A DNA stretch of 64,000 nt from Schmidtea polychroa (taxonomy: Eukaryota): assembly GCA_044892525.1 (NCBI GenBank), contig CM097885.1:1302001-1366000 (forward strand), written 5' to 3'. Under the pieces are notes generated by a model. The model searched no databases. It was not told the origin of the DNA and was given only the letters and a program-made list of their open reading frames with translations. The stretch's first letter is position 1; every line of letters begins with the position of its first letter. Both the position numbers and the translations under genes were made by a program. Below, one piece after another: positions 44,131 to 48,697 of the stretch.

Positions 44131-44404
44131 TTATTAAATAAAAGTTTATATATATACATTTGTTATTTGTTTGGTAAATTTTTATGTTTTTTATGTGTCT
44201 AGTTAATGTTTATATGTTTTGTTATGTGTCTAGTTATTTTTATGTGTTTAGTTAATTTTTTATGTGTTGTATAGTATTTGGTTGATATATTATTATTATT
44301 ATAGTAGATGGATTGGGCACCGCTGGCACAGGGCACCGTTAGCACAGTACCCCCCCCGGTCGTCATATTTTTCAAAAATATGCTAAGTCTAAAAGTACAT
44401 TTTT

Positions 44405-44900
44405 TTAAACAAAGACATATGACTCATCAAGGTCATTGAAACGAAGACCATGACTCATAGTATGGCTCATCAAATTTCTCAAGGTCATTTAAACAAAGAC
44501 CATGACTCATCCTATGACTCATCAAGGCCATTTTCAAGGGCGTATGACTCATAATATGACTCATCAAGGTCAAAATTTTTTTCAAGGTCGTTTAAACAAA
44601 GTCCATGACTCATCAAGGTCATTTACAAGGTCATATGGCTCATACTATGACTCAAATGACCATGAAAATTTTCCCCCAAGGTCATATGACGCATAGTATG
44701 AGTCATCAAAATTTTCAAGGTCATTTAAACAAAGACCATGACTCATAATATGACTCATCAAGGACATTTTCAAGGTCATATGAGTCATAGTATGACTCAC
44801 CGAATTTTTTCAAGGTCATATGACTCACCCGATGACTCATCAAAATTTTCAAGGTCATTCCTAGGGTCATATGAGTCATCGCGATGAGTCATCAAGGTCA
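44405..44900. promoter_or_regulatory. Subterminal array of TGA(C/G)TCA, TCAAGGTCA and TTTAAACAAAG motifs
   Basis: Roughly 17 TGASTCA and 9 TCAAGGTCA by manual count in ~500 bp. Confidence 0.7.
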
Positions 44901-45033
44901 TATTATTATTTTTATTATTATTTTTAAAAATATTATTATTTTATTTTTAATTTTTTCAAAGTTCTCGCCAACGAAAATTAATAATCGATAGCTCATTTTA
45001 AAGCTCAATCCAAGATTTTTCGAATGAGCTATA

Positions 45034-45127
<94 letters not shown>

Positions 45128-45244
45128 CTATATACTCCGAGTCTATATACTAATAGTCTATCCGACAAAATATTTTGTCCCCCTATGGGTAATGCTCACA
45201 AGGGTACTGGTCACGCTCAACAAATCAACAAAACATACATTTAT

Positions 45245-45735
45245 TTAAACAATAAAATAATGTAAAATTAACAAAGGTAAACTAAATATTGATGTACTAT
45301 TCGCAGCAATATTGTTTGAAATTGGTAACGTAGAATTGATTTTCAGAGATTCTATTGATCCTTTGATTGTTTGAATTTCTCTTAATAATAATTCAATCTT
45401 TTTTAACAAATAATCATGCTTCTTATCAATTATTTTCATATTCATTTTATTTTAGAGTTATTGAAAACCTTAATATGATCAATCAATTCAAATTTTATAT
45501 TTTGTATATATTCAAATGATAGTTCATAACTGTTTTCTAAATTCTCCAATCTTTGAGATATTCTTTTTCCTGGATGCTTTGACCATTTTGGTTTGTCCAG
45601 AATATATAAAATATCCATCAACTTGGCTGTATTCGGACAAACACATATTGATTTATTAAAAGACTCCACTGTTATTGTTGTATTGTGTGAGCACACACTC
45701 GTTATAATAATTAGCAATATGAATATAGTTTTCAT
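45245..45735 (-). CDS. Two ORFs overlapping at ATGA: 97-aa signal-peptide protein and 66-aa protein with hydrophobic C-terminus (possibly one frameshifted surface protein)
   Basis: MKTIFILLIIITSVCS signal; coiled coil; C-terminal IFSLPLLILHYFIV; mirrored at 59651-60141. Confidence 0.55.
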
Positions 45736-45840
45736 GGTGTATCAAATCAAAACCTTTCTTTTACATTTATAGTCTATCAACCAATCAAAATCATCCGGTA
45801 TTAGTATAAATAAAACATCATATTTTAAATTATTGTAAAA

Positions 45841-46361
45841 ATGTCTCAATTTATGGAAAATCTTTTAAGAGAACTCGTCAACAGGAATATTATGGAAAGC
45901 CTCTGTTTCCTGGTCGATCGGACCGAAAAGATTATAGAAGGTAATCACATTGATTATGAAGATGTGATCAATTCTGATTGTCTCGAAACCAAAAAATTCT
46001 ATTTTAATAGAATTTTTAACTGTCTATGCGACGATCAGATGAAGTGGACCCGAATACTAGTAGGGTTCGCTTATATGAAAATAATAATCCAAAGAAGTCT
46101 ATGGGACTCAGAGCACTATTATCAGTGGTCTCAAGAAGTAATACTTTTATAATTTATATTTTATTAATATTTATTTTCTAGATAATCAAGTCAAAGTTTC
46201 AAACATGGATTGAAGCCAATGGCGGATGGGGAGTACTCAATCAACTCGCCAGAAATGCGAAGGAAATTGATGATCAGAAAAGAAAATTTAAAAACTATGT
46301 AAAACTTGCAACAGGTGTTGCTATTTTGTATATTTTAACCAGATTTTTAAATAAAAATTAA
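45841..46361 (+). CDS. Bcl-2 family homolog, two exons (45841-46137, 46182-46361), 158 aa
   Basis: BH1-like DDQMKWTRILVGFAY; 44-nt phase-0 GT-AG intron; BH2 WIEANGGW; C-terminal anchor LATGVAILYILTRFL. Confidence 0.88.
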
Positions 46362-46444
46362 TATAGTTATTTTTGTTTGATTTTTAAATAAATTTTTAAA
46401 TAACATTTTAAATAAATTTACAAACACTAATTAACTAAGATTTA

Positions 46445-46810
46445 TTAATTAACACATTCGCAGTCGTCATCTCCACATTTCATTATATTTTCAACGACAT
46501 GATCAATACAATCATTCGTAATATTATCTTTAGATTCATCTTTAGGTTCCTCTATAGGTTCCTCTATAGGTTCCTCTATAGGTTCATCTATAGGTTCATA
46601 GATTTCCTCATCAATTTCTTGAGTATCGGTTTCTTGAGTTTCTTCCTCATCATCAAATCCTGTATCTTGACTCTCAACTAACCAGCCGATATTTAAGGCA
46701 TTTGTAATAGATAATATGTCCTCAATTTTCACACCAGATATTTCTGCTAACTTTTCCAACAAAAGGTTGATTAAAAATTCTAAATAATAAATAATTCGGT
46801 AATTAATCAT
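46445..46810 (-). CDS. Acidic protein with EEPI repeats
   Basis: 121-aa ORF with upstream octamer/TATA module; mirrored at 58576-58941. Confidence 0.6.
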   Translation of the reverse strand: MINYRIIYYLEFLINLLLEKLAEISGVKIEDILSITNALNIGWLVESQDTGFDDEEETQETDTQEIDEEIYEPIDEPIEEPIEEPIEEPKDESKDNITNDCIDHVVENIMKCGDDDCECVN

Positions 46811-46964
46811 GTTAACCTTTTTCTGCAGTCATTTTCATCACTTTAAAACTATATTATAATTTTGTTTATAGATTTTCTTTGTTAAATTTGCATGTCATTT
46901 GCATTTATGTTGCAATTAATAAAGAGAAAAACAAATCTGACTAATACATTTATTAAATATAACA

Positions 46965-47375
46965 TTAAAATATTTGTGAAAGTCTAGCAGACATAATTTT
47001 CCAAATAGGAGAATATACATCATTATTATCAACTTTATATCCCTGGATTGCTATTGTTATATACCAATTTTCATTTTCTTTGAAACTGATTTCATCAAAA
47101 GCATCATAAAATCTTGCATATCTATTGTTGAACCATGCATGTTGATTACACGATAGATTCGAATCTATCCGTTTAAAAACATCATCAATAGTTTTGACAT
47201 CAATCATTGAAAGCGTGCCGGATAAGAATTCGAATTTAGTCGGAATTAGCTTGACTGGTGCAACCAATTTCATATTGATTTCTTCTTTCAAAAAATACAT
47301 TTTGTAGTTGTGGAACATTTGAACTGGTTGTACCATTTCTTTAGGTTTTTCGGTGCTTGAAATTTTCTTGGTCAT
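46965..47375 (-). CDS. 136-aa protein, unknown function (weakly resembles viral OB-fold ssDNA-binding proteins)
   Basis: Intact ORF with a clear promoter; beta-rich C-terminus; mirrored at 58011-58421. Confidence 0.55.
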   Translation of the reverse strand: MTKKISSTEKPKEMVQPVQMFHNYKMYFLKEEINMKLVAPVKLIPTKFEFLSGTLSMIDVKTIDDVFKRIDSNLSCNQHAWFNNRYARFYDAFDEISFKENENWYITIAIQGYKVDNNDVYSPIWKIMSARLSQIF

Positions 47376-47582
47376 CGTGAATAATGAATAAATTTAAATG
47401 TTACAGGGTTTTTATACCTTTGACTCATGCCTATCAACCAATCAGATTACAGTATGTCTTTGTTTAAATTTGCATTTCATTTGCATTAATGCTGCATTTA
47501 TGTTCTATTAATGTACATATTATTAATGTTTTATTATTACTATCATTATTTCTATTATTATTATTTCTAATTCTATTATTTA

Positions 47583-47622
<40 letters not shown>

Positions 47623-47670
47623 TCTAATTCTACTTCAAATATAAAAAAAAAACTCAATACAAAAATACAT

Positions 47671-48085
47671 TTATTGATATTTATCTACAATCCGGGAGTA
47701 GTGAAACCTTCTCAGAGTTTTCACTAACTCCCATTCCACATATCGCCGATATCGATCGGCACAGCAGGAACATCCGAACATACATTGATATTCCGGCTTC
47801 ATTTCTTTCACTGTTCTGTTAATCTTTATATCCCATAAGAATTGATGGAATACCTCCATAATTCTTATTTGGGTTGAGTAGAAAATGAGGTCCGGAATTA
47901 TTTCTGCTTCTCGATCCTTGATGATTTCAATAATTTGAGGATAATAGTATTTGAGTGTATTGATCATTACATCTAAATATTTTTCTAAAATAATAAATAG
48001 TAAATAATGTGAAAATAAAAATTTAAAATTTACCGTAATCGTCGATATCCTTCATGAGGTTTGCAGAGCTTGGTAATTTGTACAT
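47671..48085 (-). CDS. Spliced Cys-containing protein of unknown function (left-arm copy)
   Basis: Mirror of 57298-57712. Confidence 0.55.
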
Positions 48086-48161
48086 GATATTGAAAAAAAA
48101 ATGAATTCTAAACAAAAACCGTTTGTTTAAATCAATCAATAACCAATAAGAAATTAACCAT

Positions 48162-48598
48162 TTAGAAATCGACCAATGAAATTATCACATTTCGAACATT
48201 GTCAACAAATTCTCTATACTCCAAATTTCTCAACCCAACATGACAACCTTTCCACTAGCAAACACGTTGACACATATAGGGTTATATTTTAATAGTCTTA
48301 GTGCCGGAAACAATTCCGGTTCAAACATACAATCACATTTTTTCGACATGTTATATAGATTGATACTATGTCCCATATCCATAGTAACGGTAATTGATTG
48401 GATTGTAATATTATTTATTCGATATTGTAATTTATTAATATCCAAAGGTTTCTTACATCCCATGATTCGGCATTTACCAGTCTTGAAAAATATTATCGGA
48501 TATTTCCCACTTCTATCGATAATTTGCTGGGGTTTCCCTGGTGGGAACCTCATATTCGATACATCAAAATTTCCTCGATAATTTATATTTGCTAACAT
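48162..48598 (-). pseudogene. TBP-like gene, left-arm copy with a 1-nt deletion near the 3' end
   Basis: TTGGGTTGA here versus TTGGGGTTGA in the intact copy at 56783-57220. Confidence 0.85.
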
Positions 48599-48697
48599 TA
48601 TTAAATCATTTATGAAAATTAGTCTTTATATATAAATTGAGCACGAGTTCATTAAATCATCGAATATAAACAAATACACATTTATAAAATCTTTGAA

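Follow-up and report, generated by a model that had tools for sequence, protein, structure and literature searches.

A left-end cluster of six small genes in an adintovirus-like Maverick of Schmidtea polychroa, with a predicted mini-TBP, a likely single-stranded DNA-binding protein and a Bcl-2-like protein

A 64,000-nucleotide stretch of the genome of Schmidtea polychroa (NCBI GenBank assembly GCA_044892525.1, contig CM097885.1, positions 1,302,001 to 1,366,000 of the forward strand), referred to below as the window and numbered from its first letter, carries two Maverick elements, of which the one designated element B is the subject of the present analysis. A 3.35-kb block of six small genes (45245-48598) was found in element B between a terminal motif array and the packaging-ATPase gene, which starts at 48698 on the plus strand. 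From left to right, the block genes are predicted to encode a small membrane protein (minus strand), a Bcl-2-like protein (plus strand), an acidic protein, a 136-residue protein (p136), a Cys-rich protein and a short relative of the TATA-binding protein TBP, hereafter mini-TBP (the last four all on the minus strand; Table 1). A first-pass annotation of the window had noticed a block of small genes between the terminal array and the virion genes, and the block is real, although the interval proposed for it (44303..48662) also took in 44303-45289, which is the terminal inverted repeat (TIR) of the element.

The match of other genomic copies begins at 44302/44303 of the window on the left, and about 1 kb recurs in inverted orientation at the far end. 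Identical termini (beginning with AGTAGATGGATTGG) and 6-bp target duplications (GCTCTT and AGCAAT) were found in two of the three copies searched, while the left end of the third did not match the probe; one copy with such termini measures 19,409 bp, and the family is about 19.4 kb long with TIRs of about 1 kb. Normal copies are organised in the order block (at the left end), ATPase, integrase, capsid genes, adenain, protein-primed polymerase and RING gene. Pfam searches on a normal-layout copy identified an A32-type ATPase, an integrase with rve domain and chromodomain, adenain and a C3HC4 RING protein. A weak alignment (E 3e-4) links a 407-residue capsid candidate to the double-jelly-roll capsid protein encoded by element A, the other Maverick of the window, and the candidate is also supported by homology across related loci; a large open reading frame (ORF) shares 33-35% identity over ~980-1000 residues with ORFs of related contigs that match DNA_pol_B_2 (E 1e-21 to 1e-23). 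With TIRs, a 6-bp target duplication, a family B polymerase (PolB), an rve integrase, ATPase, adenain and a capsid candidate, the family carries the hallmarks of Mavericks/Polintons and is best classified as adintovirus-like. Orthology of the block to a host gene cluster is ruled out by the 6-bp target duplications and the copy number.

The element B family is very abundant and young in the host genome. The block was present in 40 of 40 scored genomic DNA matches (91-100% identity), 38 of which cover at least 3,349 of 3,668 nt, and absence from other family members, the outcome that the first-pass annotation had named as fatal to its reading, was thus not observed. Out of 4161 first-look candidates, the 150 mini-TBP matches that were scored are all full length, 98-100% identical and free of stops, a number that is a lower bound for open copies. 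Copy number and near-identity together suggest recent or continuing activity in the animal germ line. Intactness was assessed over 15 distinct other copies: p136 and the acidic frame are open in all 15, exon 1 of the Bcl-2-like gene in 14 and the TBP gene in 12, and the Cys-rich gene is intact in 12, two of them aligned in part; stops or frameshifts hit one gene or another in several copies. The ratio of non-synonymous to synonymous differences (pN/pS), summed over pairs of 14 copies that are not independent of one another, was 0.11-0.36 in seven of the eight block segments (Table 1), and the differences between copies are mainly synonymous. Such low ratios indicate that most differences arose under purifying selection, that is, during replication of the lineage. 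Pieces of the block at 90-95% identity were also observed in sequencing runs X4 and X5, which bear the label 'organism B' (29 of the 34 X4 contigs fall in that band), pointing to a related family in another species.

The TBP gene reported by the first-pass annotation was confirmed with the Pfam model PF00352, whose scores of 54.3, 56.0 and 57.8 bits exceed the cut-off of 22.9 and which matched one stretch only (residues 63/64 to 122/125). A search of 5.8 billion proteins identified 108 relatives, all with PF00352, which share 38-97% identity and range from 96 to 232 residues, mostly about 145-165. E93, E95, F97, L100, F113, F38 and a CR.MG motif are invariant in an alignment of 28 sequences, and a profile of 28 relatives matched the TBPs of the PDB with an E-value of 3.9e-20, through the second half only. 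In the AlphaFold2 (AF2) model (pLDDT 94.9), residues 1-61 form four strands and no proper helix, as assigned by DSSP, and residues 62-142 form a complete repeat of strand, helix, strands and long helix. Foldseek returned 44 PDB matches at E<=0.001; among the matches listed all are TBP chains, with TM-scores (query) of 0.62-0.76, and since the alignments extend over 164-177 columns, both TBP repeats are covered. The first repeat is without the H1 and H2 helices in the model and without recognition at the sequence level. As modelled, mini-TBP is a full two-repeat TBP saddle with a stripped first repeat.

F97 and F113 in the second repeat and F38 in the first, all three invariant in the 28 sequences, are candidates for three of the four phenylalanines that form the DNA-kinking pairs of TBP; the invariant EPELF segment would correspond to the second-repeat stirrup that contacts TFIIB. 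The closest known systems are the cellular and archaeal TBPs (PF00352), with which the TBP-like genes of large DNA viruses are grouped. Mini-TBP resembles them in its matching second repeat, in a model that superposes on the two-repeat saddle and in an EPELFP stirrup and two phenylalanines that are invariant among the aligned relatives; it differs from cellular TBPs in its length, 145 residues against a core of about 180, and in being encoded by a Maverick. Because both first-repeat helices are lost, it would present half of the upper surface used by the partners of cellular TBP. The protein may bind the TATA boxes of the element's own promoters and recruit host TFIIB and RNA polymerase II (Pol II) through its conserved second-repeat stirrup.

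The surroundings of mini-TBP genes were compared by tblastn with the family proteins in 80 metagenomic loci and one IMG/VR locus (TBP 25% identical), loci with a TBP identity of at least 40% being regarded as close and counts being taken among loci with room for the gene in question. The ATPase gene adjoins TBP on the downstream side in 8 of 10 close and 7 of 11 distant loci, and p136 adjoins TBP on the upstream side in 16 of 25 close loci; in several of the loci where p136 is not found upstream (L065, L066, L068 and L070), the TBP gene follows the protease. Other genes beside TBP in the relatives encode a dual-specificity phosphatase (DSP), a ubiquitin-conjugating E2, RING fingers, KilA-N, PLA2 and PC4. 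From these comparisons, mini-TBP is a conserved gene of the lineage and p136 a gene conserved in closer relatives, and the remaining block genes occupy a variable slot that is filled by different host-interaction genes in relatives. The slot beside mini-TBP has the appearance of a general hot spot for the acquisition of such genes by these viruses, and the two best-conserved genes of the block appear to serve expression and replication of the virus itself. A distant Maverick-like contig encodes a protein with two PC4 (p15 coactivator) stretches (L100:1302-1790, plus strand, E 4e-21) directly upstream of its TBP-like gene. The RING gene of the element B family, a 108-residue C3HC4 type (zf-C3HC4_3, E 5e-8; L017:6993-7319, plus strand), is located just inside the right terminal repeat and is absent from the window; a weak homologue of it adjoins mini-TBP in the metagenomic locus L067.

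The first-pass annotation had marked one block gene as a possible single-stranded DNA-binding protein (SSB), and fold matches of the p136 model support this assignment. The AF2 model, built with 17 homologues (pLDDT 91.2), is a beta barrel with one helix. In a Foldseek comparison with the PDB, the top match was the SSB of phage Enc34 (probability 0.97, E 0.048), followed by African swine fever virus (ASFV) CP312R, T7 gp2.5 and RPA, none of the PDB fold matches reaching E<=0.001; the four best structural matches among 48,161 chains were T7 gp2.5, the phage Enc34 SSB, DUF2815 and ASFV CP312R. In BFVD, 20 matches at E<=0.001 were obtained, all of them unnamed giant-virus proteins, and a profile search matched 7 unnamed proteins. 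Homologues of p136 adjoin mini-TBP in 20 metagenomic loci. As modelled, the protein would resemble T7 gp2.5-like viral SSBs in an oligonucleotide-binding (OB) barrel with an inserted helix; it differs from them in its low identity (4-10%), its length (136 residues against 166-260) and the lack of any sequence-family match. An acidic C-terminal tail is a feature of gp2.5 and of bacterial SSBs; p136 ends in ...KIMSARLSQIF, and its relatives are likewise without an acidic tail. A PC4-like fold, suggested by the sequence pattern, was ruled out by the model and the fold searches. The structural theme being consistent and the scores modest, p136 is a likely gp2.5-like SSB for protein-primed replication, in which it would coat the displaced strand as the adenovirus DNA-binding protein (DBP) does.

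The two exons of the Bcl-2-like gene encode the BH1-like motif KWTRILVGFAY (exon 1) and the BH2-type motif WIEANGGW (exon 2), the latter followed by a hydrophobic tail, VKLATGVAILYILTRFL, read from the sequence; BH1 and BH2 thus stand in the right order ahead of a C-terminal membrane anchor. In a sequence search of the PDB, the top match of exon 1 was BCL2A1 (E 0.11) in the BH1 region (KWTRIL against NWGRIV), and all five matches of exon 2 were the BH2 of Bcl-2/Bcl-xL (TWIEANGGW against TWIQDNGGW). Bcl-2 clusters account for 18 of the 30 Atlas matches of the protein, with a best score of 0.93; a search for relatives of exon 1 matched its own cluster alone. Together with the Pfam matches weighed below, these results point to a remote Bcl-2 homologue, which, as a tail-anchored protein, may delay mitochondrial apoptosis in infected cells. 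A recent origin by capture from the host is rejected, the spliced product reaching only 10-12 bits against two strong host Bcl-2 ORFs. Cellular Bcl-2 genes have an intron just after the BH2 motif; the intron of the element B gene lies before the motif and not just after it, which also counts against a recent capture. In the genome as a whole, the Bcl-2 model of Pfam has matches at 150 places or more, including several repeated classes of ORFs of 152-179 residues, with C1:6358467-6358736 and C2:60018615-60018884 among the matches. Many matches of about 29 bits lie inside open frames of about 1000-3090 residues, suggesting a Bcl-2-like domain within a giant repeated ORF, and mobile elements of the host genome seem to carry Bcl-2-like domains repeatedly.

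Structure prediction, proposed by the first-pass annotation for each ORF, yielded the TBP saddle of mini-TBP and, with modest scores, the candidate OB fold of p136; the three remaining proteins gave no family, fold or relatives. In the membrane protein both termini are hydrophobic, N-x-S/T sites are present and the middle is coiled-coil-like; its Pfam matches are weak, of coiled-coil type and below the cut-off (Fib_alpha, E 8e-4), and no usable match was obtained in the Atlas. The secreted or surface protein of the first-pass annotation is only part of this gene, that ORF and the next small ORF forming one membrane ORF of 165 residues in other copies, although the presence of a membrane protein is upheld. 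Exon 2 of the acidic gene encodes Glu/Asp/Pro repeats and a C-terminal Cys/His cluster, and its frame shows in-frame length changes of 12 nt only among the 15 distinct copies. The Cys-rich gene is the most divergent gene of the block between subfamilies (pS 0.48) yet is constrained (pN/pS 0.16); at least three diverged versions occur among the copies at 74-87% nucleotide identity, with the frame and the Cys cluster kept. No Pfam family was matched by the acidic or the Cys-rich protein, and a HMMER scan of 1.84 billion proteins with the Cys-rich protein gave a single match, a fragment of 44 residues. The three proteins would be lineage-specific accessory factors. The pS of 0.48 in the Cys-rich gene compares with 0.02-0.08 in its neighbours, in blocks that are otherwise 97-100% similar (47671-47967 against L027-L032), and this divergence amid near-identical blocks suggests exchange of the Cys-rich gene between sublineages.

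The CCAAT/TATA modules and the AATAAA signals at stop codons noted in the first-pass annotation are likewise real. In five of the six block genes a TATA[AT]A box precedes the start codon by 31-41 nt, and CCAAT or ATTGG is located within 92 nt in four. In four genes AATAAA falls in the interval from 4 nt before to 11 nt after the final base of the stop codon; it shortly precedes the stop codon in the Bcl-2-like gene and overlaps it in the Cys-rich gene. The 11-mer TCAACCAATCA occurs five times in the window against 0.06 expected, always in element B, and twin octamers (ATGCAAAT, 3 nt, ATGCAAAT), of which the window has four against none expected, precede the acidic gene and p136. From these signals, the block is read as six independent Pol II units, each with a TATA box preceded by CCAAT or twin octamers, and with AATAAA at or beside its stop codon. 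The fifth copy of TCAACCAATCA (52665-52675, minus strand) is located in the core after the protease gene and hints at a further independent transcription unit in the 52.4-54.8-kb stretch. Motif arrays in the terminal repeats (window 44380-44900 and 60587-61300) are dense in two motifs. Of the 25 copies of TCAAGGTCA in the window (0.56 expected), 23 fall in the two arrays, and all 31 copies of ATGASTCAT (0.66 expected) do so. To our eyes the two resemble a nuclear-receptor half-site and an AP-1 site, respectively, and the element ends may act as enhancers.

Three block genes are best read with one tiny intron each, of 37-51 nt. The introns measure 44 nt in the Bcl-2-like gene, 37 nt in the acidic gene of the window and 41 nt in 14 of the 15 distinct copies, and 49 nt in the Cys-rich gene, whose intron body has diverged to 49-51 nt in two divergent copies with GTAAAT..CAG kept. 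GT..AG is retained by all three introns in all 15 distinct copies, while their lengths shift by 2 or 4 nt, and such changes are tolerable only if the stretches are non-coding, which argues for introns. The in-frame ATG of the acidic ORF is absent from the 14 copies with 4 extra nucleotides, and an ORF without an in-frame ATG in most copies favours the small first exon proposed in Table 1. In the contigs of run X3 (guessed to be RNA), 21 non-genomic A follow 46369, which is 14 nt downstream of the AATAAA in the Bcl-2-like gene, and 20 non-genomic T precede 46938, which on the minus strand is 11 nt downstream of the p136 AATAAA. Both runs have the appearance of poly(A) tails, each at a predicted site. 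The start of one X1 contig coincides with the first base of exon 2 of the Bcl-2-like gene, which was not counted as evidence, and a further A-run follows 46777 in X3.

Table 1. Features of element B in and around the gene block (window positions) and pN/pS of the coding segments
Feature	Position	Strand	Details	pN/pS
Left arm of 7-kb inverted duplication	41702..48667	.	partner 56714-63997, up to the end of the window	
Left TIR of element B	44303..45289	.	starts with AGTAGATGGATTGG; (ATT)n run 45034-45125 inside; outside the gene block	
Motif array in left terminal repeat	about 44380-44900		dense in TCAAGGTCA and ATGASTCAT	
Small membrane protein gene	45245..45735	-	one 165-aa ORF in other copies; split in both window arms	N half 0.36; C half 0.30
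Divergent promoter, membrane/Bcl-2-like genes	45736..45840	.	CCAAT 45781-45785 inside TCAACCAATCA (45777-45787)	
TATA boxes flanking the shared CCAAT	45766-45771 (minus-strand gene); 45805-45810 (Bcl-2-like gene)		each 36 nt before the start codon	
Bcl-2-like gene	45841..46361	+	spliced product 158 aa; AATAAA 46350-46355	
Bcl-2-like exons	exon 1 45841-46137; exon 2 46182-46361		exon 1 of 99 codons; intron 46138-46181 (44 nt, GT..AG)	exon 1 0.20; exon 2 0.11
Acidic protein gene	46445..46838	-	proposed exon 1 46817-46838 (MKMTAEK + 1 nt, 22 nt)	0.64
Acidic gene, intron and exon 2	intron 46780-46816; exon 2 46445-46779	-		
Acidic gene, upstream	twin octamers 46886-46904; TATA about 46865-46870			
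p136 gene	46965..47375	-	136 aa; OB fold with one helix, T7 gp2.5-like (predicted)	0.17
p136, upstream	TATA ~47411-47416; TGAGTCA ~47421-47427; CCAAT 47438-47442; twin octamers 47468-47486			
Cys-rich protein gene	47671..48085	-	exon 1 48034-48085; intron 47985-48033 (49 nt); exon 2 47671-47984	0.16 (pS 0.48)
Mini-TBP gene, left arm	48230..48598	-	ends early, 122 aa; family form 145 aa	0.27
Mini-TBP/ATPase divergent promoter region, short	48599..48697	.	TATATATAAA at 48628-48637; inverted duplication stops at 48667	
ATPase N-terminus (comparator)				0.31
Second, inverted copy of the whole block	56714..60352	.	takes the place of most of the polymerase gene and of the RING gene	
Mini-TBP gene, right arm	56783..57220	+	145 aa, open; Pfam TBP E 3.7e-15	

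Early regions of adenoviruses (E1B-19K, E2A DBP, E3 and E4) are separate promoter units near a genome end beside compact virion genes, and their products include an inhibitor of cell death of the Bcl-2 type, a replication protein that binds single-stranded DNA, and small membrane proteins. The element B block resembles them in its position near a terminus, its separate units and its Bcl-2-like, SSB-like and membrane proteins. No sequence relationship was found, save an Atlas cluster at rank 10 (score 0.86) in which 20% of the members carry Adeno_E1B_19K, and the two systems differ in that adenoviruses use host TBP and element B integrates by an rve integrase. The adenovirus E1/E3-like module of the first-pass annotation therefore stands as far as a transcription-factor homologue, a Bcl-2 homologue, a membrane protein and individual promoter and poly(A) signals are concerned; 'host control' does not fit mini-TBP and the SSB-like protein, the former being found beside the ATPase in a broad range of related elements and the latter beside mini-TBP in the closer relatives.

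The closer comparison is with adintoviruses and other animal Mavericks (PMC8502044; Starrett et al. 2021), which, in the portions of that paper available to us, share with element B a linear type of organisation with TIRs, a protein-primed polymerase, an rve integrase, an FtsK/A32 ATPase, penton/hexon-like capsid genes, adenain and end-located anti-apoptotic homologues (Bcl2, IAP/RING). Against that source, as far as available, element B differs in the clustering of mini-TBP, a gp2.5-like SSB, a Bcl-2-like protein and three orphan genes beside the ATPase, and in the tiny spliceosomal introns of its block genes. The same portions of the paper record adintovirus homologues of Bcl2 and IAP, name 'Oncoid' and 'Adintoc' genes, and carry an 'SSDBP' label in a supplementary map and a 'TBP' gene label in the legend to Figure 5 for the MELD viruses, a label that may or may not denote the same mini-TBP family. 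Oncoid genes are defined there by LXCXE with a CK2 site next to paired CXXC and by a location upstream of PolB; inspection by eye revealed no LXCXE in the acidic and Cys-rich sequences of element B, whose genes lie at the end opposite to PolB. Among the literature searched, wording that joins adintovirus, polinton or Maverick to TBP was found in PMC8502044 and its preprint only, no paper combined adintovirus-type names with 'single-stranded DNA-binding protein' or 'gp2.5', none combined 'adintovirus' with the hyphenated 'Bcl-2', and the accessible part of PMC11161782 makes no mention of TBP, TATA or Bcl. With Bcl2/IAP homologues and a 'TBP' label already in print in the portions seen of PMC8502044, the claim of an undescribed system is overstated, since this kind of module, the adintovirus accessory gene set, has already been described. 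What goes beyond the findings of the literature search is a mini-TBP that is present throughout the clade and whose first repeat lacks helices, together with the frequent pairing of this protein with an ssDNA-binding protein.

Taken together, the block is probably best understood as the left-end accessory cluster of an adintovirus-like Maverick, in which a viral mini-TBP would serve promoter use, the SSB would act in replication and the Bcl-2-like protein in the survival of the cell. Several observations weigh against this interpretation. Exon 1 of the Bcl-2-like gene, on its own, matches Pfam Bcl-2 (PF00452) with E 0.008 and 17.1 bits against a cut-off of 31.4, so that the Bcl-2 call of the first-pass annotation is supported by the BH2-type motif and hydrophobic tail of the second exon but weakly by the first. 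Read-through matches in sister copies, about 2.3-2.4 kb from mini-TBP matches, are borderline (31.1 bits at C3:82.716 Mb, reaching 31.4 bits 'with its neighbours in the frame', and 30.2 bits at C1:180.901 Mb). Homologues of p136 were detected by tblastn in none of the 26 distant TBP loci with room, and those of the Bcl-2-like, acidic, Cys-rich and membrane proteins in none of the 81 related loci, so that of the synteny of TBP and Bcl-2 proposed earlier, TBP beside the ATPase is retained and Bcl-2 is not. No contig joint across any of the three predicted introns was found among the X1-X4 contigs; no sequencing run is on record as RNA, six being guessed as such, and contigs cannot show expression level. 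The non-independence of the pairs behind pN/pS counts in the same direction. To our knowledge, expression and replication of Mavericks and adintoviruses are almost unknown, and we know of no cultured system; the block offers compact parts that can each be tested alone, namely mini-TBP, a likely SSB, a Bcl-2-like protein, promoters, tiny introns and poly(A) sites.

A narrower and rather doubtful idea is that the mini-TBP of the clade, a full DNA saddle with a single helical 'lid', would constitute, together with the gp2.5-like or PC4-like single-stranded DNA-binding protein with which it is often paired, a self-contained initiation module that frees the viral TATA promoters or the start of replication from control by host TFIID. 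On the same idea the family would still be active in the animal, in view of a minimum of 150 open mini-TBP copies (98-100% identity) and of the poly(A)-ended contigs. Were mini-TBP and its neighbour to act in DNA replication proper, the saddle would bend or open AT-rich DNA at the ends of the element and the binder would hold the strand for the start of the polymerase; this is suggested by the adjacency of mini-TBP to ssDNA-binding-type genes of two unrelated forms (p136 in 20 loci and a PC4-domain gene in L100) and by its lack of half of the transcription-partner surface. It seems very improbable, however, as good TATA boxes at the usual distance before the block genes give mini-TBP a clear target in transcription, no variation occurs among the aligned sequences in the stirrup residues of the second repeat, TGASTCA and TCAAGGTCA prevail over TATA-like runs in the terminal repeats, and PC4 itself is, by its Pfam description, a transcription coactivator. 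A temporal 'early region' for host control on the lines of adenovirus E1/E3/E4, with all six products directed at host pathways and a TBP-like decoy that shuts down host transcription, is quite improbable as well. Separate promoter and poly(A) units near the terminus, set beside virion genes that are tightly packed, overlapping and on one strand, would agree with such a region, as would the Bcl-2-like and membrane proteins and the RING and other host-interaction genes that share the slot in relatives; but an SSB-like protein is a replication function, and mini-TBP still has phenylalanines and a stirrup as expected for DNA contact in a functional TBP and is conserved across its clade, unlike host-interaction genes.

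The remaining explanation, that the small ORFs other than TBP are chance or decaying frames without function in a dead transposon, draws on the three products without detectable relatives, on the stops and frameshifts of several copies and on the defective state of the window copy. It is extremely improbable in view of pN/pS well below 1 in seven of eight block segments, of p136 and the acidic frame being intact and open, respectively, throughout the 15 distinct copies, of a Cys-rich frame and Cys motif kept at 74-87% nucleotide identity, of conserved promoter, splice and poly(A) signals, and of poly(A)-like contig ends at two predicted sites.

The copy of element B in the window is itself a defective palindromic derivative that arose after integration. 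Repeat finding showed that 41702-48667 and 56714-63997 form an inverted repeat of 99-100% identity, which spans the whole block, so that the block is present twice in the window, and which continues 2.6 kb past the end of the element into the flank. Comparison with four other genomic places revealed the normal layout of terminal repeat, block once, core and second terminal repeat at three of them (C3:130.77 Mb, C4:53.47 Mb and C1:103.18 Mb), relative to which the window copy is without ~1.7 kb at 49055 and ~3.5 kb after 56718. The absence of the 1.7 kb accounts for a fused ATPase/integrase-tail ORF in the window (48698-49336, with Pox_A32 and Chromo matches), and the absent 3.5 kb correspond to most of the large polymerase ORF and the RING-finger gene; most of the integrase and polymerase genes are thus missing from the window copy itself. 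The fourth place, C1:0.63 Mb, has the palindromic layout as well (G000:C1:0.62-0.65 Mb, L023-L026); located 0.7 Mb from the window's locus, it is probably a segmental duplicate of it, and the arrangement suggests that, near the start of contig C1, an inverted duplication of the chromosome came first and a segmental duplication later.

Several lesions are private to the window copy. Both arms are 7 nt shorter at ~45452, which splits the membrane ORF into parts of 97 and 66 residues, and a 1-nt length difference near 48233-48238 reduces the left-arm TBP to 122 residues in place of 145. The ATG of the acidic ORF at 46810 is also private, 14 of the 15 distinct copies having 4 extra nucleotides there and the sole exception being the window's own right arm. 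Repeated fragments of another protein-primed polymerase gene were observed around element B and elsewhere in the window (1741-4390, 23777-25112, 39196-44300 and 61398-63997), including debris with DNA_pol_B_2 at 2656-3351, and an Endonuclease_7-like zinc motif recurs in the debris at 23790-24965, 40013-41164, 42214-43218 and 62481-62990. It seems that element B inserted into an accumulation of older Maverick remnants.

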